From positions 1 to 26,069 of the IMG/VR virus record IMGVR_UViG_3300011416_000292: a DNA stretch of 26,069 nucleotides, one strand, 5' to 3'. Within the stretch, counting starts at the first letter, position 1; each line of letters begins with the position of its first letter. Shown piece by piece: positions 2,930 to 21,989 of the stretch. A program made the translations under genes and the position numbers. The notes beneath the pieces were generated by a model that made no database searches, was not told the origin of the DNA, and worked only from the letters and a program-made list of their open reading frames with translations. Origin of the DNA: a virus (Duplodnaviria > Caudoviricetes).

Positions 2930-5900
2930 TCAACGATTGAATGCTTTAATTAACTTGTCGTAGATAATCTCTTCCTCTTCCTCGATGTCCTTTACCCGGT
3001 TCCGCTTCTCGGCGAAGGGCATGTCCGACAGCCTGATGGCATCCACGGCATCCCGTTTGGCCTTGGCCAGCTTCATCTGCCGGTCGGCCAGGTTCGCCAC
3101 GGATATCAGGTCGGCGTTGTCTTCCTTCAACTGGTTGGCGACCTCCGGGTTCTTGTCCTTCTTGGCGGACTTCCACTCTTCCGCTGCAGTCTTGGCGTCC
3201 CCAGCGATCTGGTAGAACAGCTGCCGGGTGTCCTTGACGTTGTTCTCCTTGCCCAAGACCGAGACCATCGGGATCTCCCCGACCTCGGGACCACTGCCGC
3301 CATCCACCATGCCGAGACCGACCTGGGCCAGACCGACTGACTGGTCAATGAACGTGAAGGCACCACCTAATATCGACCGGGTGTAGAACTTCAGCACCTC
3401 GGGGGATACATCGACTGCACCGGAGGAATACTTCGTTCCACCGGATATATCATTCAGGGCAGCCGAAGTCTTCTCGTACAGAGTTCCCTTGGTGGCCCGG
3501 TACATGTTCTGGGAATCAGGCTTCGACTCACTGTATTTTGTCGGCGCGATGGGTGATCCAAAGCTCCCCAGATTCGTGGCCGGTGCCAGTAGGAGTTTCG
3601 GGACTGTTGGTAACATGGCGACCGTGCTTTTCCAGTTGAGACCTTCATGGGTGACCGGATTTCCCAGCGGTGAGAGGCCGTCCATGATGGCACTGGCCAG
3701 GTTCATGGCAGTCTTTTTGTCAGCCTTTCCGTGGGCAAGGTCGTTGATGGCATATCCGATCCCCACGAAGGATCCGTACTCATAAGGAAGGGGGATGGTC
3801 AGGAATGACTTCTCGCCGGTCCTGATGACAAGGTTGCGGTTCTTGGTGGACCGGCCGACCTTTTCCCATTCGTCGTCATCATCGCCACCGATCCCCCGGG
3901 AGAGTTCGGCAGCCATGTACCCCACCATGGCCATGGCGCCGACCAGTGCCTGCGCCTGGTGCTTGTGCTTGGACTCCGTGAGGGCGAAGATACTGCGCTG
4001 GATACCTTGGACAGCCGGGTTGAAAAATAGCCACAGGGCTCCCATCTGGGGGCCGAGTTCGCCCTTCTTGTCGAAGTTGATGGTTGAGTTCTTGGCGGCC
4101 TCTCCTGCTTCGGCCTCTGACTTCCCTTCTTCCACCAGGGTGATGAACGTGGCCACCCGGAATGCATTCTCTGAGATGGAGTTCATGGCTTCGATCATCT
4201 TGAGGAAGTGACCCAGGATAGGTATCTTCTCGAATCCGGCCACACCCGATTTCGCCAGGGCCTTCGTTCGGGCATACATCGGGCTCCGACCTTCTGCGAT
4301 CTGCTCGTCATAAACTTGACGGTAGGTGGCGATGGCCCCGATGTGTTCATGGTACATGGACTCAACATCATCGCCCAGCCGCTCAAGGGAGGACAGATAG
4401 GATGCCCCGGTGGACCCGCCCTGCTTGCGGTAACGGTCGATCCACTGACTCTTGCTCGGATCCTTGCGACCCTTCCAGAACTCCTTGACCGCCTTGGGGT
4501 AGTTGGCTGCAATCTTGGCTGCCGTGGCCACCCCGTAGTCCCCTGTCAGGTTGACCATGCCAGAGGTGAAGTCCCGGATGGTGTTCCTGATGGTGAACCG
4601 CGGGTCGTATCCGGTGTAGGCCCGGGAGAAATAGTTGTTGATCGTCTTCCCGATTGTCAGCAGAGTTCCGAGCCCTTCCGCCCCCATGTTGGTCAGGGCG
4701 TCGGCAGAGATCTGGTCGTTGATCTGGATGCGGACCTGGTGCCCTTTGACAAAGGCATTGACCTCGTTCTTGCCCAGCATCGGGCTGACCATCATCTTGA
4801 CTGTCGGGTCGGTTGAGATGTCCACCACGTAATCATCGATCGGAGTGTGATATTGCGCCCGGTGAGCAGCGACGAAATCATCAGCCTCTTTCTCTGTACC
4901 GAAGGCACCGATCACCGTACCCTTGAATTCAGCCGTGTAGACCTTCTGGTTCTTGAAGACCCTGCGGAGTTCCGGCTTACCTACTGTTCCGATGGCTGGG
5001 TCGTTGGCCTCGACCAGCAGGGAAATAATTTGGAGATTAACTTTATTTTTTTCTATTGTCTTGATGGCCGATTCACGGGCCTTGATGATGTTCTCCAAGA
5101 CATGTTCCTCGCGGAGTTCATGCCCTGCCCTGCGCTTGAGGTTGCGATTGACGACCTGACCCTTGCCTGCCCCGGGCTTCGTGTCTCCCTCACCACCACG
5201 CAGCGGGACGTAATGAGTATATGCACCCTGCCAGGCGTCTCGCATTTCCTGAGAGATGATGCCTGCCTTGAGCAGCATGTCCGCCGACTCATCCGAGAAT
5301 GCCCTGAAACGGTTGGCGATGCTCTCCAGCTTGGCGAAGTCTGCCCGGGCCTTGTAGACCTTCAGTGCGTCTGCAGCTTCCTTGTCGGTGACACCGAATG
5401 CTGTAGCAGTGGGGTCCTTGTGCAGTTCTCGCATCGCCTGATTCGCTTCAGCGGCGTGTTGCATCAGCAGGAAGTCGCTGATGTCGTCCAGTTTGATCTT
5501 CTCCTTGGCGGCCTCTTTGATGAGGGGGCCAACCTGAAGGTCCATGAAGCGCGATAACTGGTCAGCGGTCTTGCCAGCTTGAACTGCGAGACCCCTTGAT
5601 ACGTCCGCTTGTTCGGAGAGGACAACCCCGTTGTCTTCCAAGTACTCCTGCAGCACATCCAATCTGTTGAACTTATTTTGGAACTTACGTTTCAACAGTT
5701 GATATGGAGTTTCCACCGGAAGATTATTTTGTCTTACCGAATACTTTGGTGAATCGCCTTGACTAGTTGTCCCATCTAGTATACCATTGGATATCTTTTC
5801 TATGGAGGTAAGCATATGCCGAATGTCATCTGTGCCTTTTGCGGAACCACTACCCACAAACTGCCGTACCAGATCAGGCAGAGTAAGTCCGGTAGATTCT

Positions 5901-8900
5901 ACTGCTCTTACGAATGCAGTCAATCTGACCATCGTAGTGTATGGGTCGACTCCGAGGGATATCAGAGATCCAAGGTTGCTGGACGGTCCCCTCTCATCCA
6001 TCGTCAACTTATGGAGAAGCATCTCGGGCGCAGACTGTTGTCCAGTGAAGTCGTCCACCATATTAACGAAGACAAGACGGACAACAGGATTGAGAATCTT
6101 GCTATCCATAGCAGATCTGGCCACATGTTCGAGCACAATCCCTTGAGTTTTGATATCAAGGCCGCTGAAACCATGCTCAAGGAAGGACTTTCTGTGAACG
6201 ATGTCGCTGAAAAACTTGGTGTCACTCGCGGCATCTTGAGTGGTGCTTTTATCCGTAGAGGCACGACCACCAACGCGGTCAGAGGACTCCCCCCTCAAGT
6301 TGAGAGAAGACCTTTGCAACTCCCTGAGATAGTCGAGTGCATCAAGAAAAGCTGGTCCCTGGATCAAATGGCTGACTTTTTTAAATGCAGTACGAGTTTC
6401 ATCAGGGACACCATCAGGAGTAATGGCACCTCTCTGAGAAAGATCAGGGTGTCTCTCGGTCTCCCCGCTGGCATCACGCCCAATCGGATTTACTGATTCA
6501 CGTTTCTGTTTTACCGAGAACATCGGGTAGGATGCAGGAGTCTTGTCTGTGATGGGGATGTAGGGGACAAGGATAAGCGTGGACTGAGTGCCTGGGTTGA
6601 TAATATCGTAAAAGCCAGTTTCTCTATTCTGCCTTACCTGTAAATCTTCTGTGGCATGGTTTCTTTTAAGGAATATTTCAGCGGCCTCTCTACTGGTGAA
6701 ACCACGCTCTACTACAGGGCGGGCGTTCTTTTCGCCGATGCTTGTTTTACCTACCCCCTCTTTCCCATACTTCTTGAACAGGGCAGGGAGAGTACGATCA
6801 TAGAGAGCCTTCAGTCCAGCCCCCCCAATCGACAAATCCAATCCCGAGAGAATCTTTTCTGACTCATGGTATTTTTGCTTTACAGAGTCTTTAGACTGAT
6901 TTAGAATATCAGCATGAATATTCAAAAGTTTTGCGAGTTCTGTGGTGTTGAGATTTTTCACAAGTGGCCTTCCCATCTTGCTAGGAAGAGGTTCTGCTCC
7001 AGAACGTGCAGGTCTAGTTTTCTGTGGGATACCGTCAGTGCCAAGATGGAAGATGCGTCCAGGGCTTACAATGCCGACAATTTCTCTCGCGCTGAGATCA
7101 CTTGTCCGCAATGCGGGAAGAAGCGCTACGTCTCCCCTGCCATCCTCAAGGCTGGTGCTAAGTTTTGCTCCAAGGCTTGCTCCGACATCGCGCATCGCGT
7201 TGACAACCCCAACCGCCACAGGACTACGTTCATTGATGGCAAGCTCACCAAAGACCATATCCTTATTGTGGAAAAGGCTATCGGCAGAAAGATGGTTCGC
7301 GGAGAGGATATTCATCACATCAACGGGCAAAAGCGAGATAACAGCCTGCTTAACCTGATCGTGTTGAAGCATGGACAACACACTTCCGTCCACTGTATCC
7401 AAAGGCATCAGAAACGCCATCTTAGTGCCGTAGACATTATCAGCCAGTTCCCCGATGCCTTGTGGCTTGGTAGCCTCGTCCCATAGTGGGTTGCTCGAGG
7501 CCCCTTCCCCATCGCTTATTTTCTTAGCTATTTCTTTGCCAAGATATTCCTCTATGGTTTTATCGGTTGCCCTAGATTCAGTCCAAAGACTATGCCCATC
7601 TTTTTCTGCCGAGACCTTGTATGTGCCATCTTCGTTCGGCTGATAAGCGATTTCATCTACCTGCTTGCTCAAATCATACCTTGCCGCCTGCATGGCACCG
7701 GTCGTGAAACTCACCCCGTCAAATCCGTTCTCCTTGGCATAGGCCAGTACACGCTTGACGCCGATATCGTAGATGCGCTTGACCAGATATGAGGGCATTT
7801 TCTTCTGGTTGGCAAATGACGGACCCTGCATCTCTTCGACAAAAAGAATTTTGCCCTGCTCGGTCTCGCGCTCGTTGAAGCGGATTCTTACTATCGGATT
7901 CGTGATCGATTCGTATTGCGAGTGGCCGTCTTGCCATTTACCAGCCTCTCCTGCTACCCGTTTCTTATAGTTTGGGTGCTCTTTTAAATCACTTCTTGCC
8001 TCTTCCTCTGTAGGCCATCTTCCCATTCGTTCGCCATCAAGAAACGCATCAACTCCATTTTTTGCAGGAGTTGTCGTTATGACTGATGCAGAGGATAAAC
8101 CGAGTCCCGGTGCTGTTACAAACATCTCCCTGTACGATCCTGCTGCTGCACCAGGTTCTGTGTATTGGGAGAAGTGGGTGACATCTTCTCGAAAGTCGCC
8201 AACTTCTTCTTGGTATCTTGCGTGTGCTTCGCTTTGTTCGGCTGGCGATAACTCTGAATAAGGGGTTTCTTCGTTCGCTCCCCCTTCGTCATTCCACCAT
8301 GCCTCAACATCACCCATATCAGGTTCGCCCAGCACCACATCCTCAAGCTCAACAGAATTGGCCTGAATCGCTTCCAGTACTTCCGCCTTGGTCACCGCCT
8401 TGCCTTCGTCGAACTCTCCCAGCACGGTGCCGATTTCGTCCTCTGTGACTCCATTGTTGCGTAACATGGAACGGAGTTGTGGAACGAACATGCGACCTGA
8501 CATCTTCTGCTCGACCACTTCCGCCAGTTTCGACCGGAAGGGCTGCAGTCTTTCCCTTGCTTCCTTGAGAGAGTACCGGATGTCAGGGTTGGTGGGGTCA
8601 AAGGAACCGCGATTTCCGATTGCGGATTTTATCTGGGTAGGGGAATAAACAATGTAGGCTTTCCGGCCATCTGCCCTCACTATTTTCCCATCATAACCTC
8701 GGGACAGTGATTCTTCTGCTATCGTGATTCCTTTTGCTATTGCTGACTTCTTGATATCTCCTGCCACTCTATCAGGAACTGGGTTTTCAATCTTAATGTA
8801 GACGGGCATAATGTTACCGCCCCGCCCTGTTTTGTTTGCATATTCCGCCGCATATTTGGTTGACTCTGTGAACATGAAGGCGCCCACAAAACCACCCGTG

Positions 8901-11900
8901 CGGGATGTCGTGTGTTCATCGGAAAACGCATCAAAATCAGCAGGAGTCCCATGATAAACGACCAACGGATTCCCATCCTCATCCACCACACGGCTATTTT
9001 TAAACCATGCTTTGAACTCAGGTGTCTCTGTCTGCTTGGTGGAGAACAGAGGACCGTTTTCGATTCCTGTCTTGATGGTAGTTACTGCAGCGGGATTGTA
9101 AATCACCACACCGCCGAACGACCTGTCGAAGAGCCCGTCTACTCCCGCTTTTTTCATGATGATTGGGAGTGAGTCGCTGGATAAGAGATTCCCTTTTTTC
9201 GACAGGACATCCCACCTCATGGAATCCACTTCATCCCTGAGGTCAAGTATTTTTGCAGTGTCTTTGATTTTGATGGCGATTACGGACCCGCCACTCTCAT
9301 CTCCTGACATGTCAGCGTAATTACTCTTTGCCAGACCGTAGTCCGATGCCAGATAGAGACCCTTCCCGAAATATCCAGCAGTGGTTTTGTTGAGGTCTAT
9401 CTTCTTGTGGATGGACTCAGCCGAAGATTTCTCGGTGCCATGGAACATAACCCTTCCTGCCCATCCCTTGACTGGGACGTCTTCGGGGTCGATTGAATAC
9501 TTGGAAACCAGGTCGTCCGCGCCAAGGTTTTCTGTCTGCTGTGCAACAGGAGTGACTGGGCCGGCGAACCCTATAAACTCCTTGGAGAGTCTGATGGCAT
9601 CTTCGGCACTAACCTGAGACGCAGACAAGTTGTTACCTGATTTGCCTTCTGCCCTCCAGACACCGAATTCTTTGTACGTTCTCCAGCCGTTCGACCAGAC
9701 GGTCTCTTCATCTCTCAGTCGCTTCCCCTTCACCGAGAACTGCACATCATCCAGCACCGGCTTCATCGGATTGCCTTGGTCTGACTCTTTGTCCATATTC
9801 TCATAAAGGAATGGATCGATGATTTTCTTGACTGCTTCCAGATCAGGGAACAGGTCGGTGACGTCCAGCCCGTTGCGCTTGCCTGTGTCCAGCAGCCTGT
9901 CGATGGCATCGGCGATGGCCCTGAACAACTTGGGTGCCACCTTGGACAACCCGCGCCAGAACTCCTTGTCGTGCCACCGTGTAGCAGTGAGGTCGGCGAT
10001 GATTTCCCGGTTGACCTCATCGGTTGAAAGGTCGCGTTTGCGGTTGGTCTCCAGCCATTCATGGTAGGTCGCCCGGGCCTCGGGGTCAGCCAGAGCAATA
10101 ATCTTGTCCATGACTTCAGTGTACCCATCCGACCTCTCGAATGAATGGGTGATCTCATGGCCTACCACTACCAGCATGGGATGTGTGGTGTCTTGGGCAA
10201 GGAAGATATTCCCCCCCCAGTAGACTCCGTTGAAACGAGTGGATTGTTTTACGAAGATGGGTTTCTGGATGCCGAGAGCAGCGGATATCTTGAGGACATC
10301 CTTCTGCTCTGGCGTGAGGTCTGTTGCTACTTCAAGGGTTTCTCCGACTGCTCGGGAGAGCCCTGCGGCTTTTTGTTCTGCCAGGGCCGTGGGAAACGGT
10401 CCTTCATCTGGAAGTGTGGTGCTGTCCTGTCTCCCTGTGCGAACCGATGGTTGCACTCCGACATGTACTGGTACGCTTCGTCCGTTGTCATAACCACCCT
10501 CCTCAAGGATGACCTTCTGTGCAGCCGGTTCGATCTGGTCCCAGCGAACCTTGGGAGTCTTGGTAGAACCTGCCCTCTCCAGCAGGTCCTTTCTCTCAGA
10601 CCGTTTGAGGCCGTCCCACCAGCGAGTTACTTTTTGTTCTGTTCTACCCTCTTCTTGAACCTGTCCCTCATTGACTGCAGAAACAGTTTCCGATCCTTCG
10701 GCTGCAGTTTCTGGCTCACTCGTTCCAAACATTTCGTCAAAGAGTCTGAGAGCTTCATTGGCTTCCTCCGGTGTTAAATCCTGTTCGCTGAATGTATCGG
10801 CTTCATGGTCAACGGCCTGTAACGATTCCTCAACGTCTTCTTGCGAGAGTTCAGGGAATCTATCAAGTATTGCCTCAACATCATCAGGATGGATAACAGG
10901 GTTGCCACTGGCCTGCGCTCTGACCATATCGGCAAACGACTGTGTGTCTACTTCTCCATTCACATCAAGGGTGACATTCCATCCTTGGTCCCGCATGTCC
11001 CGCGCCATCAGGTCAAGGCCAATTCCATTCTTGCTCTTGATTCTCAGATACCGTGCGCTGCTGGTTTCCTTCGGGTCGATGAACTTTGCCAGTGATTCAG
11101 GAGTGATCCCCCCACCCTGCTTGATATCGCTGAACAGATTGCGCGGACCTTTGGGCTTGGCTACTTTTTCTTTTTGCGGCTGAGAAGTTCCTGTTCCTTT
11201 TTCTCCAACGCCGGTATTGTCACTGACGGTGGTTGGCCCTCCAGGTGCTCCATTCCTATTTCCTTCAGGAGCGACTTGTCCGACATGGTGAACCTCCTTG
11301 GCTGCTTCCTTCGCCTTCTTTACTCTCACGGACGCCAGTTCAATGGCGGTCTTGGCACTGTCCGCTTCACCGAATTCACTGACTCCGATATGGAGACCGG
11401 TCCCGGGTGCCTTCCCTTTCGGGTGGGCAAGATCAGACAAACCATTTTCCTTGGCGTAAGCCTGTATCTTACCGTGTACCACTTTCAGGGCTTTTGTCAA
11501 ATCTTCTTTTGAAACGCCCGGGGCGATGACGGCCAGCTCATCCCCACCCTTCCTGATGACCTGGGCCCCCTTGAACTGGCTGACCCCTTCTCTGAGAATA
11601 TCTGCCATGGCACGGAAGTGCGTGTTCGCTTCTTCCTCGCCTCCGGGGAGCTCATTCAATCCCCCGAGGTTATGGATGTCGGCGATGGCATAGGCCACCT
11701 TCGATCCCTGGTTATCGTGGAGATCCCATGCACGTTTGAGGGTGGGCCCATGGTGGCGCCGTTCGATCAACCCGGTCTCGGCATCGGGAGTGCGCTCGTG
11801 CTTCCGCCGATCTTCCCGAGTCTTCTCAACGGCCGGGTGTCCCGGTTCCAACCCCGTTTCGATCAGGTCCTGCGCTGCCTTGTCGGCGATGACATCTGCT

Positions 11901-14260
11901 TCGTGGGGGAAGGTTACCTCAGTTTGGTCCCGCACGTCGGACAGAGGCGTTTCCCCTTGCACACTTTTTTCTGGCACTGCGGACACTTCATTCGATTCTC
12001 CTTTTGCGACTGGTGTCTCAATTTGAGAAGTTTCCCCCGGCAGGGATGGGGAGGGGGCCACCCCTGCCGGAGTATTGGCTTGCTCTACAGGGGAGGGACC
12101 CGGAGCAGAACCAAGTTCAGTGAGTGCCTCGAGTGCAGCCCGATGCTCCTCAACCTTTGCCAGTGCGGAGTCTCTCGACGCACCTTTAAGCCTGTTTGCG
12201 GCGATGCCCCATGATTTCATGCCCTGCCCATGGATGGCGATCTGCTGCTGTTTCTCTGCCTGAACCTGCTCGGAACCTGGTGCCTGGTCCCATGCCGCTC
12301 GGAGACCTTCATGCCCTTCTGTCGCAAGTTGAGACTGGATTGTCTGGAAACCACGCTTGGCTGCCAGGTCCTGTGCGAAGGTCGCGTAATCCTGACCGGC
12401 CAGCTTTGCCGCTGCAGCCTGTTCGGCGATAGGCGCAGGGGTTGGTTGGGGGGTGAACTCCTCGGGGCTCACAGGGGCCTTCTCGTTCACTGAAGGAGAA
12501 ACCACACCTTGTGATGTCTCGGCGATGATCTGGTCGACAGTCTCTGCAGGGGCAGCAGGTTCTTCTGTGGTCGTGGCGCCACCCAGTTTACTAAGCAGGT
12601 CGGCCTGATGCTCGGGAGACCCTACCGTGCCATTAACAGTCTCGTTGGCGGCGGCGATCGCATCGTCGACAGAGACGCTTCCATTGCTGATACCGGTGTC
12701 GGGAACTTCGACCTTCGCCTCGGCCGGCGCATTGAACTGCTCCCACCCTTTATCGTTGGCGACCATGCCGACCGGTTCGCTTTCGAAACCCTTCCACCCT
12801 TCTCCAGTAGGTTCGACCGGAGCAGTGAATATATCAGCACTGTACGGCAGTGCAGAGTTCGAAGTGACTGCGTTGGTGATGTTGGTCCGGGCGGTCTGCT
12901 TCTCTTCTTCAGGAATAGCACTGGCGTCCACGACTGCCATCAGTTCGTTGGCTGCCGATACCCGAGACTTGGCTGCAGATATCTTTGCCTGCGCCAGGGT
13001 CTCCCCTTTGGCGGTGAATTCCGCTACCTTCTCTGGGGTCACCGGTGAGAACAGGTCTTCCTTCAGTCTGGTGGATTGTCTGGCCTGTGATATCTGCCCG
13101 GCTGTTTCGAAGCCACCGGTCACCGCGGCACCGGACACACCACCGACAATTCCTGCCTCAATCATGCGCTTATTGATGTACTCTTCGCGGGTCATCCCGA
13201 TGGGGAGTTTGACCATGCCAGTGTCGAGATCCTGCTCGGCCTGGAACTTCTCTGTCCCCACTTCCGACATGCCTTCGAAGGGGACATCAGCTGCAGCGTG
13301 AAGAGCGATCGCAGTGCCGCGCTTTGTGGCGGATTTGGATATGTCTTCGAAGAGTGCCTGCCCTGTGTTGGTCCCCGCCACCTTGGCGACGAAGTTCCTG
13401 ACCACACTGGCGGACCCGCCCATCGGAAGGAACTTGGCACCGAAGGCACCGGCCTTTATGATCGATGCCTGTGCGGAGTTGCCGGCCATTTCGAAGCCTG
13501 CCTCGTACACTCCGTACTTGGCAGCTGCGGCCTGCATCTCGTCCTCGCTCATCTCGATCTTGCCCTGCTCTTTTGCTTCCCGCAGGTCCTTCAGTCTCTG
13601 CAGGTATGAGTCCTGGTACATCAGGTAATTGGAGACGCTACCACCACCAGGGAGAAGATTGGGCACCATGTACATCATCGACCTGGGCAGGTTCTCAATC
13701 ACCTGACCTGTGATACCCATAGCGGAATCTTCTTCGAACTTTCCGCCGGTCACACCCTTGTCGACCGACCGCAGGGCCCCGCCTACCGTACCCCTCAGAC
13801 CACCAGACTGCTCGGCCACAATCTGCTCGGTTGGAGCGGTGCGCTGGATGTGAGTCTGGCCTTCTTCATCCGTCCAGGTCTCGGTGTCTGGCGTACCGAA
13901 AAGGCCCACGTCGCTGCGGTTGACATCGAGCGGATCACCTTCGATCAGGTTACCGATGCTGGATATGGCGGACGTGCCTGATTTATACAGACTCTTTCCG
14001 ACTTCTTTTGCGGTAGGAATGATGCCGTGAGGAACGAGATCAGTAGGAAAAAGTGGATCCGTACCGGTAGCGATTGCCTCGGTTACGTTGGCCGGCTGGG
14101 TGCGGTCGGCGTAGAGCTCACCATCATAGATGGAAGGCTTTACCTTGCCTTGGGTTGCGAAGTCGGTCTGGTCATCGAAGGTGATCTCGTCACTGTCAAG
14201 AAAAGTGCCGCCCTTCTTGGGGGTATCAAACTGGACCTCCGAAGCGTCAAAGAAAGTCAT
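2930..14260 (-). CDS. Large polyvalent (virion-ejected/internal core-type) protein, 3776 aa
   Basis: Continuous ORF with RBS AAGGGG, located after the ejection-type genes. Contains GGDEF, HExxH, two ART-like and LPD38-like segments. About 470 codons are antisense read-through of two HNH cassettes. Confidence 0.9.
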   Translation of the reverse strand: MTFFDASEVQFDTPKKGGTFLDSDEITFDDQTDFATQGKVKPSIYDGELYADRTQPANVTEAIATGTDPLFPTDLVPHGIIPTAKEVGKSLYKSGTSAISSIGNLIEGDPLDVNRSDVGLFGTPDTETWTDEEGQTHIQRTAPTEQIVAEQSGGLRGTVGGALRSVDKGVTGGKFEEDSAMGITGQVIENLPRSMMYMVPNLLPGGGSVSNYLMYQDSYLQRLKDLREAKEQGKIEMSEDEMQAAAAKYGVYEAGFEMAGNSAQASIIKAGAFGAKFLPMGGSASVVRNFVAKVAGTNTGQALFEDISKSATKRGTAIALHAAADVPFEGMSEVGTEKFQAEQDLDTGMVKLPIGMTREEYINKRMIEAGIVGGVSGAAVTGGFETAGQISQARQSTRLKEDLFSPVTPEKVAEFTAKGETLAQAKISAAKSRVSAANELMAVVDASAIPEEEKQTARTNITNAVTSNSALPYSADIFTAPVEPTGEGWKGFESEPVGMVANDKGWEQFNAPAEAKVEVPDTGISNGSVSVDDAIAAANETVNGTVGSPEHQADLLSKLGGATTTEEPAAPAETVDQIIAETSQGVVSPSVNEKAPVSPEEFTPQPTPAPIAEQAAAAKLAGQDYATFAQDLAAKRGFQTIQSQLATEGHEGLRAAWDQAPGSEQVQAEKQQQIAIHGQGMKSWGIAANRLKGASRDSALAKVEEHRAALEALTELGSAPGPSPVEQANTPAGVAPSPSLPGETSQIETPVAKGESNEVSAVPEKSVQGETPLSDVRDQTEVTFPHEADVIADKAAQDLIETGLEPGHPAVEKTREDRRKHERTPDAETGLIERRHHGPTLKRAWDLHDNQGSKVAYAIADIHNLGGLNELPGGEEEANTHFRAMADILREGVSQFKGAQVIRKGGDELAVIAPGVSKEDLTKALKVVHGKIQAYAKENGLSDLAHPKGKAPGTGLHIGVSEFGEADSAKTAIELASVRVKKAKEAAKEVHHVGQVAPEGNRNGAPGGPTTVSDNTGVGEKGTGTSQPQKEKVAKPKGPRNLFSDIKQGGGITPESLAKFIDPKETSSARYLRIKSKNGIGLDLMARDMRDQGWNVTLDVNGEVDTQSFADMVRAQASGNPVIHPDDVEAILDRFPELSQEDVEESLQAVDHEADTFSEQDLTPEEANEALRLFDEMFGTSEPETAAEGSETVSAVNEGQVQEEGRTEQKVTRWWDGLKRSERKDLLERAGSTKTPKVRWDQIEPAAQKVILEEGGYDNGRSVPVHVGVQPSVRTGRQDSTTLPDEGPFPTALAEQKAAGLSRAVGETLEVATDLTPEQKDVLKISAALGIQKPIFVKQSTRFNGVYWGGNIFLAQDTTHPMLVVVGHEITHSFERSDGYTEVMDKIIALADPEARATYHEWLETNRKRDLSTDEVNREIIADLTATRWHDKEFWRGLSKVAPKLFRAIADAIDRLLDTGKRNGLDVTDLFPDLEAVKKIIDPFLYENMDKESDQGNPMKPVLDDVQFSVKGKRLRDEETVWSNGWRTYKEFGVWRAEGKSGNNLSASQVSAEDAIRLSKEFIGFAGPVTPVAQQTENLGADDLVSKYSIDPEDVPVKGWAGRVMFHGTEKSSAESIHKKIDLNKTTAGYFGKGLYLASDYGLAKSNYADMSGDESGGSVIAIKIKDTAKILDLRDEVDSMRWDVLSKKGNLLSSDSLPIIMKKAGVDGLFDRSFGGVVIYNPAAVTTIKTGIENGPLFSTKQTETPEFKAWFKNSRVVDEDGNPLVVYHGTPADFDAFSDEHTTSRTGGFVGAFMFTESTKYAAEYANKTGRGGNIMPVYIKIENPVPDRVAGDIKKSAIAKGITIAEESLSRGYDGKIVRADGRKAYIVYSPTQIKSAIGNRGSFDPTNPDIRYSLKEARERLQPFRSKLAEVVEQKMSGRMFVPQLRSMLRNNGVTEDEIGTVLGEFDEGKAVTKAEVLEAIQANSVELEDVVLGEPDMGDVEAWWNDEGGANEETPYSELSPAEQSEAHARYQEEVGDFREDVTHFSQYTEPGAAAGSYREMFVTAPGLGLSSASVITTTPAKNGVDAFLDGERMGRWPTEEEARSDLKEHPNYKKRVAGEAGKWQDGHSQYESITNPIVRIRFNERETEQGKILFVEEMQGPSFANQKKMPSYLVKRIYDIGVKRVLAYAKENGFDGVSFTTGAMQAARYDLSKQVDEIAYQPNEDGTYKVSAEKDGHSLWTESRATDKTIEEYLGKEIAKKISDGEGASSNPLWDEATKPQGIGELADNVYGTKMAFLMPLDTVDGSVLSMLQHDQVKQAVISLLPVDVMNILSANHLSADSLFHNKDMVFGELAINERSPVAVGVVNAMRDVGASLGAKLSTSLEDGRGDVALLPALRTSDLSAREIVGIVSPGRIFHLGTDGIPQKTRPARSGAEPLPSKMGRPLVKNLNTTELAKLLNIHADILNQSKDSVKQKYHESEKILSGLDLSIGGAGLKALYDRTLPALFKKYGKEGVGKTSIGEKNARPVVERGFTSREAAEIFLKRNHATEDLQVRQNRETGFYDIINPGTQSTLILVPYIPITDKTPASYPMFSVKQKRESVNPIGRDASGETERHPDLSQRGAITPDGVPDETRTAFKKVSHLIQGPAFLDALDYLRELQRSSLNLRGESSDRVGGRASTDKSTTQDAASDTKFFSDIVHRKSFLEHGFSGLDIKTQGIVLEHVARSAMDSKILNPVVRLVFVNMVDDFTGQQSAPEMLLHKLTMDERGPSSNLGSLISLGVDPYTTMVRLTAFVRAVESTGLTLPDLVRQFVGSGSAKGTDDIRHMLTSIEKISNGILDGTTSQGDSPKYSVRQNNLPVETPYQLLKRKFQNKFNRLDVLQEYLEDNGVVLSEQADVSRGLAVQAGKTADQLSRFMDLQVGPLIKEAAKEKIKLDDISDFLLMQHAAEANQAMRELHKDPTATAFGVTDKEAADALKVYKARADFAKLESIANRFRAFSDESADMLLKAGIISQEMRDAWQGAYTHYVPLRGGEGDTKPGAGKGQVVNRNLKRRAGHELREEHVLENIIKARESAIKTIEKNKVNLQIISLLVEANDPAIGTVGKPELRRVFKNQKVYTAEFKGTVIGAFGTEKEADDFVAAHRAQYHTPIDDYVVDISTDPTVKMMVSPMLGKNEVNAFVKGHQVRIQINDQISADALTNMGAEGLGTLLTIGKTINNYFSRAYTGYDPRFTIRNTIRDFTSGMVNLTGDYGVATAAKIAANYPKAVKEFWKGRKDPSKSQWIDRYRKQGGSTGASYLSSLERLGDDVESMYHEHIGAIATYRQVYDEQIAEGRSPMYARTKALAKSGVAGFEKIPILGHFLKMIEAMNSISENAFRVATFITLVEEGKSEAEAGEAAKNSTINFDKKGELGPQMGALWLFFNPAVQGIQRSIFALTESKHKHQAQALVGAMAMVGYMAAELSRGIGGDDDDEWEKVGRSTKNRNLVIRTGEKSFLTIPLPYEYGSFVGIGYAINDLAHGKADKKTAMNLASAIMDGLSPLGNPVTHEGLNWKSTVAMLPTVPKLLLAPATNLGSFGSPIAPTKYSESKPDSQNMYRATKGTLYEKTSAALNDISGGTKYSSGAVDVSPEVLKFYTRSILGGAFTFIDQSVGLAQVGLGMVDGGSGPEVGEIPMVSVLGKENNVKDTRQLFYQIAGDAKTAAEEWKSAKKDKNPEVANQLKEDNADLISVANLADRQMKLAKAKRDAVDAIRLSDMPFAEKRNRVKDIEEEEEIIYDKLIKAFNR
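3360..3870 (-). other. LPD38-like domain of the polyvalent protein (approximate bounds)
   Basis: WEKVGRSTKNRNLVI...FLTIPLPYEYG...SPEVLKFYTRSILGG, preceded by AKNSTINFDKKG..LWLFFNPAVQG, the usual C-terminal arrangement of phage polyvalent proteins. Confidence 0.65.
5759..5809 (+). promoter_or_regulatory. sigma70-type promoter and Shine-Dalgarno for antisense HNH-1
   Basis: TTGACT (5759-5764), 17 nt, TACCAT (5782-5787). GGAGGT at 5804-5809, 6 nt before ATG 5816. Confidence 0.7.
5816..6496 (+). CDS. HNH homing-type endonuclease (Zn finger + HNH_3-like + two HTH-like repeats), nested antisense in the giant gene
   Basis: CAFC...YCSYEC; IHRQLMEKHLGRRLLSSEVVHHINEDKTDNRIENL..H...H; C-terminal EGLSVNDVAEKLGVT and SWSLDQMADFFKCS. 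Has its own promoter and SD. Confidence 0.9.
   Translation: MPNVICAFCGTTTHKLPYQIRQSKSGRFYCSYECSQSDHRSVWVDSEGYQRSKVAGRSPLIHRQLMEKHLGRRLLSSEVVHHINEDKTDNRIENLAIHSRSGHMFEHNPLSFDIKAAETMLKEGLSVNDVAEKLGVTRGILSGAFIRRGTTTNAVRGLPPQVERRPLQLPEIVECIKKSWSLDQMADFFKCSTSFIRDTIRSNGTSLRKIRVSLGLPAGITPNRIY
6879..6907 (+). promoter_or_regulatory. sigma70-type promoter for antisense HNH-2, predicted leaderless transcript
   Basis: TTTACA (6879-6884), 17 nt, TAGAAT (6902-6907). The ATG begins at 6914, the expected +1 position, and there is no SD. Confidence 0.7.
6914..7486 (+). CDS. HNH homing-type endonuclease (two Zn fingers + HNH_3-like), nested antisense in the giant gene
   Basis: CEFC...FCSRTC and CPQC...FCSKAC; HILIVEKAIGRKMVRGEDIHHINGQKRDNSLLNLIVL..GQHTSVH. 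Confidence 0.9.
   Translation: MNIQKFCEFCGVEIFHKWPSHLARKRFCSRTCRSSFLWDTVSAKMEDASRAYNADNFSRAEITCPQCGKKRYVSPAILKAGAKFCSKACSDIAHRVDNPNRHRTTFIDGKLTKDHILIVEKAIGRKMVRGEDIHHINGQKRDNSLLNLIVLKHGQHTSVHCIQRHQKRHLSAVDIISQFPDALWLGSLVP
8570..9030 (-). other. ADP-ribosyltransferase-like domain (ART-PolyVal type) of the giant protein
   Basis: TPEFKAWFKNSRVVDEDGNPLVVYHGT...FMFTES..YAAEYA...GGNIMPVYIKIENP...GYDG...YIVYSPTQIKSA. Confidence 0.75.
9080..9460 (-). other. Second ART-like domain of the giant protein
   Basis: VMFHGT...GYFGKGLYLASDYGLAKSNYA...GVDGL...VVIYNP (H-G-T / G-x-G-x-Y pattern). Confidence 0.7.
9890..10270 (-). other. Zincin-like metallopeptidase domain of the giant protein
   Basis: FNGVYWGGNIFL...VVGHEITH (HExxH, near 10146-10162) with downstream EIIAD. 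Confidence 0.65.
10327..10491 (-). CDS. Putative overprinted microprotein (54 aa), +1 frame of the giant gene
   Basis: AGGAGG-GTGGTT-ATG; MTTDEAYQYMSECNHRFAQGDRTAPHFQMKDRFPRPWQNKKPQGSPEQSEKPLK*. Confidence 0.5.
   Translation of the reverse strand: MTTDEAYQYMSECNHRFAQGDRTAPHFQMKDRFPRPWQNKKPQGSPEQSEKPLK
11161..11286 (-). CDS. Putative overprinted microprotein (41 aa), +1 frame, directly after the GGDEF domain
   Basis: AAGGAGGT-TCACC-ATG; MSDKSLLKEIGMEHLEGQPPSVTIPALEKKEQELLSRKKKK*. Confidence 0.55.
   Translation of the reverse strand: MSDKSLLKEIGMEHLEGQPPSVTIPALEKKEQELLSRKKKK
11310..11790 (-). other. GGDEF (diguanylate cyclase-like) domain of the giant protein
   Basis: DAETGL...AYAIADIHNLGGLNE..G.EEAN..FRAMADIL...VIRKGGDELAVI...LHIGVSEF; the GGDEL codons are at 11534-11548. 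Confidence 0.8.
11914..11991 (-). CDS. Overprinted 25-aa zinc-ribbon microprotein, +1 frame of the giant gene
   Basis: AAGGAG-AATCGA-ATG; MKCPQCQKKVCKGKRLCPTCGTKLR* (CPxC-x10-CPxCG). Confidence 0.7.
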   Translation of the reverse strand: MKCPQCQKKVCKGKRLCPTCGTKLR

Positions 14261-14269
14261 ACGGTCCCC

Positions 14270-15331
14270 TTATGGTGTCCAGTATTGTTTGCCCTTCGGC
14301 GCTTTCGGATTGAAGTAAACAGGTTTCCCGCCAGAAGTTTTACCGGTCGGAGTATACCCTGCTGGTACACTGGATTCAAGGGTTTTAACTTTGTTGCCCT
14401 TCGCATCGGTCCACTCTGACGCAGGGGGGCCATCATAACTGCTGTGGGTAGACGTGATGGGTACCGGACCACGTCCGACCTGTCTCTCCAGTCTGGTACG
14501 TTCAGCCTGCTGCGCTTGCGACAACTCCCCGACCCTGGCTTCGATATCGTCCAACTGGGACAGACGCTTCTCGGCAGCCACGGTTGCCTTGGTCTTGCCC
14601 TTCTCAGTGGATTCAGCGTCTTTGTCGTCTCTCTTGCTGGCCGCAATGGCTTTTGCTGTGGCGTTGTTCCCTTCGGCGATTTCTTTCCTGATCAGACCCT
14701 GCTGCTCGATCTCCAACTGCCGTGCTTCCTGCTTATCTTCGCGTTCCTCTTCCTTCGCAACCTTCTTGCTGTTGAGTATCTTGATGTTCTCGGCCTTGTC
14801 GATGATGGCCTGTTCCTTCTCCGTGTAGACCGGGTTGGCCGATTCAAGCAGGGACTTCCGTGGTTTCTTGATGCCCAGCGAATTGTCGAGTTCTTCCCGG
14901 GCGGTCGGAGAGGCTTTCTTGACCCCCTCCACCGTTGCTTCCTTGGCAGACTCGGATTCAGCACGGCCGCGCCCCTCTTCCTTGGCGTCGGATGCGGATT
15001 TCTTGAGCTTGATTGCTTCCTCCAACTGATCCTGTGTCTGGGGAACCCCATCGATCTCATAGTCGGTGACAGTCCTGCCGGCCTTGCGATTTTCCGCCGC
15101 TATCCGGTTCTTCTCTCTCTGGTCCTCCCGGTCTTCAGCTGCAGTGATCCGCTTATCCTGAACCTGATCATCATGAACCTGCTTTAGCTCCTGCAGGTTC
15201 TCCTGCTTCAACGCCAGGGCCTGATCACGTTCGGCGATAAGGGCAGCCTTGTTCTGGTCGTCCAGCATCTTGTAGCCGGCCATCGCGCCGCCTTGGACTG
15301 CACCTGTCATTGCCTGGAATAGTAAGGACAT
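14270..15331 (-). CDS. Charged, helical putative ejection/internal virion protein (~353 aa)
   Basis: AGGAG before ATG 15331 (MSLLFQAMTGAVQGGA). Coiled-coil E/K/R-rich body; lies immediately upstream of the polyvalent gene. Confidence 0.65.
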   Translation of the reverse strand: MSLLFQAMTGAVQGGAMAGYKMLDDQNKAALIAERDQALALKQENLQELKQVHDDQVQDKRITAAEDREDQREKNRIAAENRKAGRTVTDYEIDGVPQTQDQLEEAIKLKKSASDAKEEGRGRAESESAKEATVEGVKKASPTAREELDNSLGIKKPRKSLLESANPVYTEKEQAIIDKAENIKILNSKKVAKEEEREDKQEARQLEIEQQGLIRKEIAEGNNATAKAIAASKRDDKDAESTEKGKTKATVAAEKRLSQLDDIEARVGELSQAQQAERTRLERQVGRGPVPITSTHSSYDGPPASEWTDAKGNKVKTLESSVPAGYTPTGKTSGGKPVYFNPKAPKGKQYWTP

Positions 15332-21310: not shown

Positions 21311-21907
21311 TTACCGCCTTCTCATGGGGACATCAAGTGGCTTATTTCTTGACAGTCGAGCTATGACTGCTTGCACGGTTAATCCATATTTAACGGCCAA
21401 TTCGTTTGTGTTTAACCCTTCGTGGTAGATAGTGTTTCTCTTGTTCCGGTTTTGCATTTTGAGCGGTATCCACACGCAATTGCTAGGTTCATAACCAACA
21501 TCTAACTTAATCCGCTCAATGCTGTATCCAACGGGGCATGGTCCCATGTCTGCATAAAAGGTTTCAAAATTCTCCCATTCCTTACAGACCTTAATTCCTC
21601 TGCCACCATAGTTTTTAAAAGAAATATTCTTAGCATCACTACATCGTGACTTAACCCCTGTCCATATTCGGTACTCTTTACTTTTGCTCATTCCATGTGT
21701 GGTGCTTCTGATTTTTGTCGTGTAACGGCCCAAGCACCCACAGCTTTTTATAGCTCCTGATTTAAGGCAATCCGCCCGTACAATGTGGTGCCTCCCGCAA
21801 CTACATAAACATAACCATGTAGCATTCCCGCTTTTATCTATGCCTTCTCTCTTCACTACGGCCAACTGCCCATACAGAAATCCAGATAAATCTTTTACTT
21901 TATTCAT
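21311..21907 (-). CDS. Free-standing HNH-type homing endonuclease (~198 aa)
   Basis: DLSG..YGQL...WLCLCSCG...SCGC...HGMS...W..VKSRC...YGGRGIKVC.EW..FETFYADMG..P...SIERI...YEPSNCVW...QNRN. AT-rich; start 21907 with AGGGAG. Confidence 0.85.
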   Translation of the reverse strand: MNKVKDLSGFLYGQLAVVKREGIDKSGNATWLCLCSCGRHHIVRADCLKSGAIKSCGCLGRYTTKIRSTTHGMSKSKEYRIWTGVKSRCSDAKNISFKNYGGRGIKVCKEWENFETFYADMGPCPVGYSIERIKLDVGYEPSNCVWIPLKMQNRNKRNTIYHEGLNTNELAVKYGLTVQAVIARLSRNKPLDVPMRRR

Positions 21908-21941
21908 AGCGATCTCCCTTCGCTCTCCAAGGTTTGATTTA

Positions 21942-21989
21942 GCGGCAGACATGGTGGAGTCCATGTTTTTCGGGAGCTACCCTAGCCGC
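21942..21989 (-). ncRNA. Three-way-junction structured RNA, resembling the phage C4 antisense RNA class
   Basis: GCGGC-TA-GGG(TAGCT)CCC-GAAAA-ACATGG(ACTCCA)CCATGT-CT-GCCGC, with all three stems perfectly paired. The family assignment is from memory only. Confidence 0.55.

Follow-up and report, generated by a model that had tools for sequence, protein, structure and literature searches.

A putative zinc-ribbon microgene nested in the +1 frame of a giant polyvalent-protein gene of a tailed phage

Genes embedded within other genes are well known in phages: in phiX174, gene E is located inside gene D and gene B inside gene A. Rz1 inside Rz is another embedded phage gene (PMC9144972; PMC10269572). 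Microproteins with four cysteines are likewise an already described kind, and a zinc ribbon nested in the gene of a polyvalent protein was not found in the literature, so far as the accessible text of the sources goes. The locus considered here belongs to the IMG/VR record IMGVR_UViG_3300011416_000292 (Duplodnaviria, Caudoviricetes), a stretch of 26,069 nucleotides that is referred to as a whole as the window. In this stretch, the gene of a giant polyvalent (DarB-like) protein, hereafter the host gene, appears to contain in its +1 frame a 25-codon zinc-ribbon gene. The nested ribbon is very probably a real gene and part of a gene family. The fuller reading, namely a selected +1 microgene whose own ribosome-binding site probably directs late translation of a basic peptide, predicted to fold around zinc and likely an accessory nucleic-acid binder, is assigned a probability of roughly 0.6.

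The ribbon open reading frame (ORF) starts on the minus strand with ATG at position 11991 and extends over 25 codons to TAA at 11914; the product, MKCPQCQKKVCKGKRLCPTCGTKLR, has the motif C3-P-x-C6-x10-C17-P-x-C20-G. It overlies residues 757-782 of the host ORF 2930-14260(-), on the same strand and in the +1 frame, and the host frame is open for more than 750 codons before it and for about 3000 after it. The nested ORF has its own ribosome-binding site, start codon and stop codon. The peptide, its stop, the Shine-Dalgarno (SD) sequence AAGGAG and the 6-nucleotide spacing are as described in the earlier note on this DNA, with the caveat that no stop interrupts the +1 frame over the 31 codons that precede the ATG and that the ORF listing places the start at a TTG at 12021 (35 amino acids). 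The ATG is taken as the start because the SD spacing fits it and because two relatives (L260 and L198; locus labels of this analysis) have in-frame stops one or two codons ahead of their ATG. A promoter scan of positions 10000-15000 gave 4 candidates, compared with 1.6 expected, none of them just upstream of the ribbon on its strand. No RNA dataset is listed with the stretch; one DNA run, which may be the source of the window and is therefore not independent of it, contains it unchanged in a single contig.

The substitution pattern in the ribbon gene is specific to the +1 frame. Between the window and the nearest member of the family, L260, whose host is a 3229-codon LPD38 ORF, the +1 readings agree at 19 of 23 residues, whereas those of the host frame agree at 6 of 23; the search pattern fixed 8 of the +1 residues, and of the remaining 15, 11 match. 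By +1 codon position the differences are distributed 3/4/14, and 12 of the 21 changes are silent in +1, compared with 40 of 207 possible changes (19%; p=1.4e-4), with 3 silent in the host frame. Five disjoint near pairs, chosen by eye, together have 78 changes, of which 35 leave the +1 residue unaltered and 14 the host-frame residue. This pattern points to purifying selection on the nested +1 frame, and the saturation of silent sites together with the retention of residues between the window and L260 implies long selection on the peptide. The DNA similarity starts at the ATG and ends at the stop codon, the 90-base flanks on each side being 20-23% identical; such boundaries suggest that the ribbon gene could be a captured cassette.

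The earlier note considered the match of motif, start, stop and SD hard to ascribe to chance. Codon-permuted copies of the giant gene yield any ribbon micro-ORF in 2 of 2000 cases, and none of 100 dinucleotide shuffles contains the ribbon pattern, a weak test in that the pattern was taken from the ribbon site itself. When the host linker was recoded synonymously, the ribbon survived in only 5 of 5000 trials, and the codon choice of the host therefore looks set by the second frame. Host residues 700-830 have no counterpart in any of 76 homologous proteins, so that the ribbon is located in an unconserved linker just before the GGDEF domain; the strict host-frame signature of the ribbon, searched in 77 proteins, matched only the protein of the window itself.

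Relatives were collected by two routes. The first followed the host gene and was blind to the ribbon: 178 loci and the window (L100 being the window's own contig and L060 a duplicate) gave, after dereplication, 76 giant genes with 1500 codons or more. Three of these, the window, L005 and L059, contain a +1 micro-ORF of the form M-CxxC...CxxC-stop, compared with 0.02 and 0.14 expected under two null models, and given this sparse presence the ribbon is accessory. The second route used cysteine patterns in which +1 nesting was never specified. The pattern GGAG plus MxCPxC-x9..11-CPxCG, applied to viral DNA, retrieved 91 loci, where 6 of the 18 ORFs of up to 45 amino acids are nested in +1 within a frame that has no stop anywhere in the locus (L264 was confirmed) as against none of the 73 longer ORFs, 3 of which have a frame open for 107-164 codons on each side; the Fisher p of 3e-5 is only a guide because some of the 91 loci are near-duplicates. 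Two further patterns added L277 and six others, the 26 loci of one of these patterns including 11 nested cases. The resulting family consists of 16 members (the window and 15 others, 13 from cysteine patterns and L005 and L059 from host-gene homology alone), every one of them in +1 within a very long frame.

The earlier note had named, besides a lack of translation, non-conservation of the cysteine codons in relatives as what would speak against the gene; in the alignment, the four cysteines and the following glycine are invariant in 16 of 16 members, and the substitutions follow the +1 frame. A purine-rich SD-like tract precedes the ATG in all 16, GGAG having been built into two of the search patterns, and 12 of the 16 combine both CxxC halves with a stop at codon 24-29. 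Among the 15 other host frames, 9 contain LPD, InPase or ART-PolyVal domains, 3 contain GGDEF or SNF2/methylase domains, and 3 are fragments without a Pfam match; the next host domain after the ribbon is InPase in 6 of the 16 members, GGDEF in 3, and another domain or none in 7. Close relatives of the window were found neither by blastn among 50,697 phage records nor by the linker-protein search of viral contigs and the strict-pattern search. In tblastn of the peptide against cultured phages, the best 25 of 56 matches were generic ribbons only, and a search with the L277 peptide gave no match. None of 188 loci contained a free-standing member of the family, in agreement with long residence or an origin in place. 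Free-standing 30-residue basic four-cysteine microgenes do occur in the apparent head-morphogenesis region of another phage group (L181, L187, L190, L231, L241 and L254); peptides of this L181 type score 18-24 bits with the profile built from the family members, compared with 38-50 for the members.

The ribbon peptide is predicted to fold around one zinc ion through its four cysteines. In the comparison with Pfam zinc-ribbon families that the earlier note had proposed, the peptide aligns end to end with the profiles DZR (PF12773, E 1.2e-4), Zn_ribbon_3 (PF13248, E 3.2e-4) and Zn_Ribbon_1 (PF13240, E 1.2e-3), the latter two over positions 4-26 of 26 and 1-23 of 23 with the spacing CxxC-x(9-11)-CxxCG, and all scores are below the curated cut-offs. 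PHROGs gave only matches of unknown function with E >1e-3. An AlphaFold model computed from a 16-row alignment, with the 35-residue TTG-extended form as the first row, reaches a predicted local distance difference test score of 86-88 over the ribbon. The nearest folds in the top rows of Foldseek are four-cysteine fingers of the RanBP2/NZF type and ribosomal ribbons, with a root-mean-square deviation (rmsd) of 0.6-1.4 Å over 24-28 residues, and the family profile weakly matches the rRNA-binding bL32 (E 0.006), eS31 and Nop10. The net charge is +4 to +8 in all members, compared with about 0 for most ordinary phage ribbons, and the host-frame residues encoded by the same stretch are acidic overall (-4, as against +8 in +1).

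Several results weigh against the reading preferred here. The Pfam scores of 19-22.5 bits fall short of cut-offs of 25-27 (20.5 vs 27 and 19 vs 25 for PF13248 and PF13240), and the fold matches are not significant (Foldseek E at least 0.4; best Z 4.4, with rmsd 2.5 over 35 aligned residues). The +1 frame of the giant gene has 18-22% Lys and Arg in both regions measured, and the basic charge may in part be a by-product of the +1 reading of text rich in Glu and Gln. Four cysteines are no guarantee of a bound metal, in that zinc was missing from 5 of 14 C(P)XCG microproteins purified from haloarchaea, according to the accessible part of PMC11241148. Four members of the family extend beyond the usual stop, to 38-68 amino acids. 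Strong SD plus ATG combinations in +1 number 128 across the 76 giants, compared with 120 under a synonymous null, so that many are due to chance and only a subset are genes; in the giant gene of the window there are 5, compared with 2.2 (p 0.16).

Based on the above considerations, ribosomes would be recruited to the late mRNA of the giant gene at the internal SD and would produce the 25-residue peptide, presumably late in infection because the host gene is part of a head-tail operon and its homologues are virion proteins. The basic peptide would fold round one zinc ion and could have an accessory role in the infected cell by binding nucleic acid. Binding of nucleic acid in the producer cell, suggested by the charge and the weak matches to bL32, eS31 and Nop10, is a tentative assignment, preferred over protein binding because the +8 charge is carried by 25 residues. 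The host linker could tolerate a nested gene because it is unconserved, and +1 would be the permissive frame, with Glu and Gly codons writing SD tracts and NAT-G writing ATG; stops in the host frame could be avoided at the wobble position of the small gene.

Alternatively, the nested gene could be real and its product could bind protein, as an inhibitor, antidote or chaperone for the neighbouring domain or the acidic linker of the giant protein, or for a target in the host cell. RanBP2/NZF-type fingers, the nearest folds, mostly bind proteins, and the opposite charges of the peptide and the overlying host text would suit such a role, as would the recurrence of InPase and GGDEF as next domains and the position of a 41-residue nested ORF after GGDEF in three genes. 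However, no one host domain is common to all members (InPase, GGDEF, RadC, zeta or none), a variation that argues against a single cognate target, and 73 of the 76 giants are without a ribbon micro-ORF, which speaks against a general chaperone. This function is considered unlikely. A relic, that is, a once free-standing gene that was crossed by read-through at a gene fusion and is now silent or only aids ribosome loading, is clearly less probable. The confinement of similarity between ATG and stop and the free-standing L181-type ribbons in head operons of other phages would be compatible with this history; the saturated silent sites with kept residues are not what a silent relic would leave, and the family has neither a free-standing member in the 188 loci nor L181-type peptides within its score range.

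It is highly improbable that translation from the internal start passes through a programmed -1 frameshift to yield a shortened giant protein with a zinc-ribbon N-terminus. The ORF of the window does contain a run of six A at which a -1 shift would enter the host frame, but this run is absent in L260, L218 and L264, and most members retain the complete ribbon with its own stop. A chance shadow of the host frame has a similarly slight probability. The +1 frame is rich in SD-like tracts and ATG (117 vs 12 in +2), and its overall count of SD plus ATG is not enriched, both of which speak for a shadow. True shadows, however, show the reverse of the pattern seen here, with 92% in the host frame as against 58% in +1 and substitutions at the wobble position of the host codons, and neither the rarity of recodings that keep the motif nor the lack of homologues of the host-frame linker suits such an origin. 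The +1 substitution pattern appears largely to refute the shadow explanation, and a selected +1 gene with a basic zinc-ribbon product remains the preferred reading.

The overprinted layer to which the earlier note had assigned the ribbon is supported as a set of nested genes, which may have arisen by overprinting or by capture. In the 76 giants, 288 SD-led +1 ORFs give eight cross-locus clusters, compared with 23 such ORFs and no cluster in +2. In five clusters, conservation in +1 clearly exceeds that in the host frame (45/31, 34/26, 71/56, 38/28 and 71/58%); of the other three, one shows no difference (49/50), and in two the pattern is reversed because these ORFs shadow conserved domains of the host protein. 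One family of 122 amino acids (L001, L002, L040, L091, L131 and L145; 45% identity in +1 vs 31% in the host frame) has no significant match in Pfam or PHROGs, and the members of another, of about 70 amino acids (L006, L048, L054, L056 and L140), all end with Leu-His before the stop. A TnpV-like cluster (E 6e-4, under the cut-off; L143:3233-3556, L150:2066-2290 and L071:2946-3275) also has an in-frame match to the C-terminus of phrog_938 (E 5e-21), and the module may thus exist either as a nested gene or as an in-frame tail, with switching between the two. In L274, L278, L285, L286 and L287, the ribbon gene is immediately preceded by a second nested +1 family, of 42-44 amino acids with four Cys and two Trp, which no search pattern had targeted before its discovery. 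The last codons of this upstream gene provide the SD for the ribbon gene, and only 0-3 bases separate its stop from the following ATG, in the manner of a small operon. In L273, two separate nested Cys-rich micro-ORFs are present in one giant gene, at host codons 394 and 483. Across the 76 giants, strong in-frame internal SD plus ATG starts are depleted (31 vs 88 expected), and +1 starts are not.

In the window, three further starts with an SD 6 nucleotides before ATG (11286, 10758 and 10491) all fall in linkers (Table 1). When compared with 18040 frames, the 41-residue ORF has weak +1 look-alikes after GGDEF in L275 and L273 (E 0.065 and 0.51), the 43-residue ORF has weak +1 look-alikes at corresponding sites in L274 and L286 (E 0.19 and 0.91), and the 54-residue ORF has no +1 homologue. 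It is possible, if still somewhat doubtful, that polyvalent giants are systematically dual-coding, with linkers that carry a swappable and partly coupled +1 microprotein operon (zinc ribbons, TnpV-like, 122-residue and 70-residue proteins). Its products, made from the late mRNA of the giant gene itself, would serve the cargo of the giant protein as antidotes, chaperones or co-packaged effectors.

Table 1. Positions of the nested ribbon gene, its host gene and associated features in the window
Feature	Positions	Strand	Remarks
Nested four-cysteine (C4) zinc-ribbon microprotein, putative coding sequence	11914..11991	-	25 aa, net charge +8, +1 frame of giant gene
Shine-Dalgarno AAGGAG	11998..12003 (12003-11998)	-	6 nt spacer to ATG; spelled by host-frame Lys-Gly-Glu codons
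Second +1 nested ORF, 41 aa	11161..11286	-	AAGGAGG 6 nt upstream; directly after GGDEF
Third +1 nested ORF, 43 aa, charge +9	10627..10758	-	GGAGG 6 nt upstream
Fourth +1 candidate ORF, 54 aa	10327..10491	-	AGGAGG 6 nt upstream
Host gene, 3776-aa polyvalent (DarB-like) protein, likely virion ejection protein	2930..14260	-	Domain content and homologues
GGDEF domain, host aa 826-987, first domain past ribbon	11300..11785	-	Pfam E 4e-10
ART-PolyVal domain, host aa 1760-1887	8600..8983	-	Pfam E 4e-30
LPD38 domain, host aa 3462-3665	3266..3877	-	Pfam E 2e-27

The host protein is very large and joins unrelated enzyme domains to an LPD domain, as is characteristic of polyvalent proteins. Major head, adaptor and tail genes are located upstream of the giant gene on the same strand, and the C-terminal part of the encoded protein has matches among the DarB-like proteins of Bcep22-like, Ralstonia, Stx and Vibrio phages. 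Among the homologues, JC1 gp69, a DarB-like protein, is virion-associated (PMC9144972, Table 6), and phi24B gp47 is virion-associated and a proposed ejection protein (bioRxiv 10.64898/2026.04.10.717836), both as given in the accessible parts of these sources; by analogy, the host giant protein is likely packaged in the virion and injected. Two HNH_3 endonuclease genes, 5816-6496 (+), with GGAGGT 5 nucleotides before its ATG, and 6914-7486 (+), lie antisense and wholly within the giant ORF, which stays open through both; antisense HNH_3 homologues are also present within the giants L042 and L070. Among the structural genes, a 217-residue ORF at 21311-21964 (-) looks homing-endonuclease-like by eye and has no significant Pfam match.

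Gene callers report a single 11-kb gene at this locus. If linkers routinely hide conserved microgenes, catalogues of phage small proteins miss a recurring class, the seemingly random linkers of polyvalent proteins would be partly the shadow of another gene, and recoding or deleting parts of DarB-like genes would hit unseen genes. Dual-coding linkers would then constitute a whole unannotated gene layer that travels with conflict modules. The giants offer many independent cases for the study of the origin of nested genes, with a clear frame rule (+1), and a 25-residue ribbon peptide is easily synthesised and tested.

With respect to described systems, the host gene resembles those of polyvalent proteins (Iyer et al., 2017, PMC5512222), JC1 gp69 and phi24B gp47 in the presence of LPD38, ART-PolyVal and GGDEF domains and in its position after tail genes; nested out-of-frame genes are not mentioned in the accessible text of PMC5512222, PMC9144972 and PMC10269572. 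In the texts covered, a literature search revealed no report of genes nested within those of polyvalent or DarB-like proteins, although a prior mention is possible. The haloarchaeal C(P)XCG microproteins (PMC11241148, accessible part) are likewise single-domain, four-cysteine proteins of fewer than 70 residues; they are products of free-standing cellular genes, whereas the ribbon is phage-borne, nested and basic. Compared with the Pfam families PF13248, PF13240 and PF12773, the ribbon has CxxC-x10-CxxCG over the whole profile; here, however, it is the entire protein instead of an N-terminal domain, and it is far more basic. RanBP2/NZF fingers, bL32 and eL40 have the same cysteine spacing and a two-knuckle fold that the ribbon may resemble in its predicted structure, with matches that are not significant; in contrast to the RanBP2 consensus, the ribbon family lacks both a Trp ahead of its first Cys and the conserved Asn, and a shared fold with such fingers or with ribosomal ribbons gives no function.

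As in Rz1/Rz and phiX174, the ribbon gene is a small gene wholly inside a larger one on the same strand, in another frame and with its own start. In contrast to these cases, the ribbon gene has 25 codons inside a multidomain host gene of 11 kb and is patchy in distribution and cassette-like, and several nested genes, some of them start-stop coupled, appear to occupy successive linkers.

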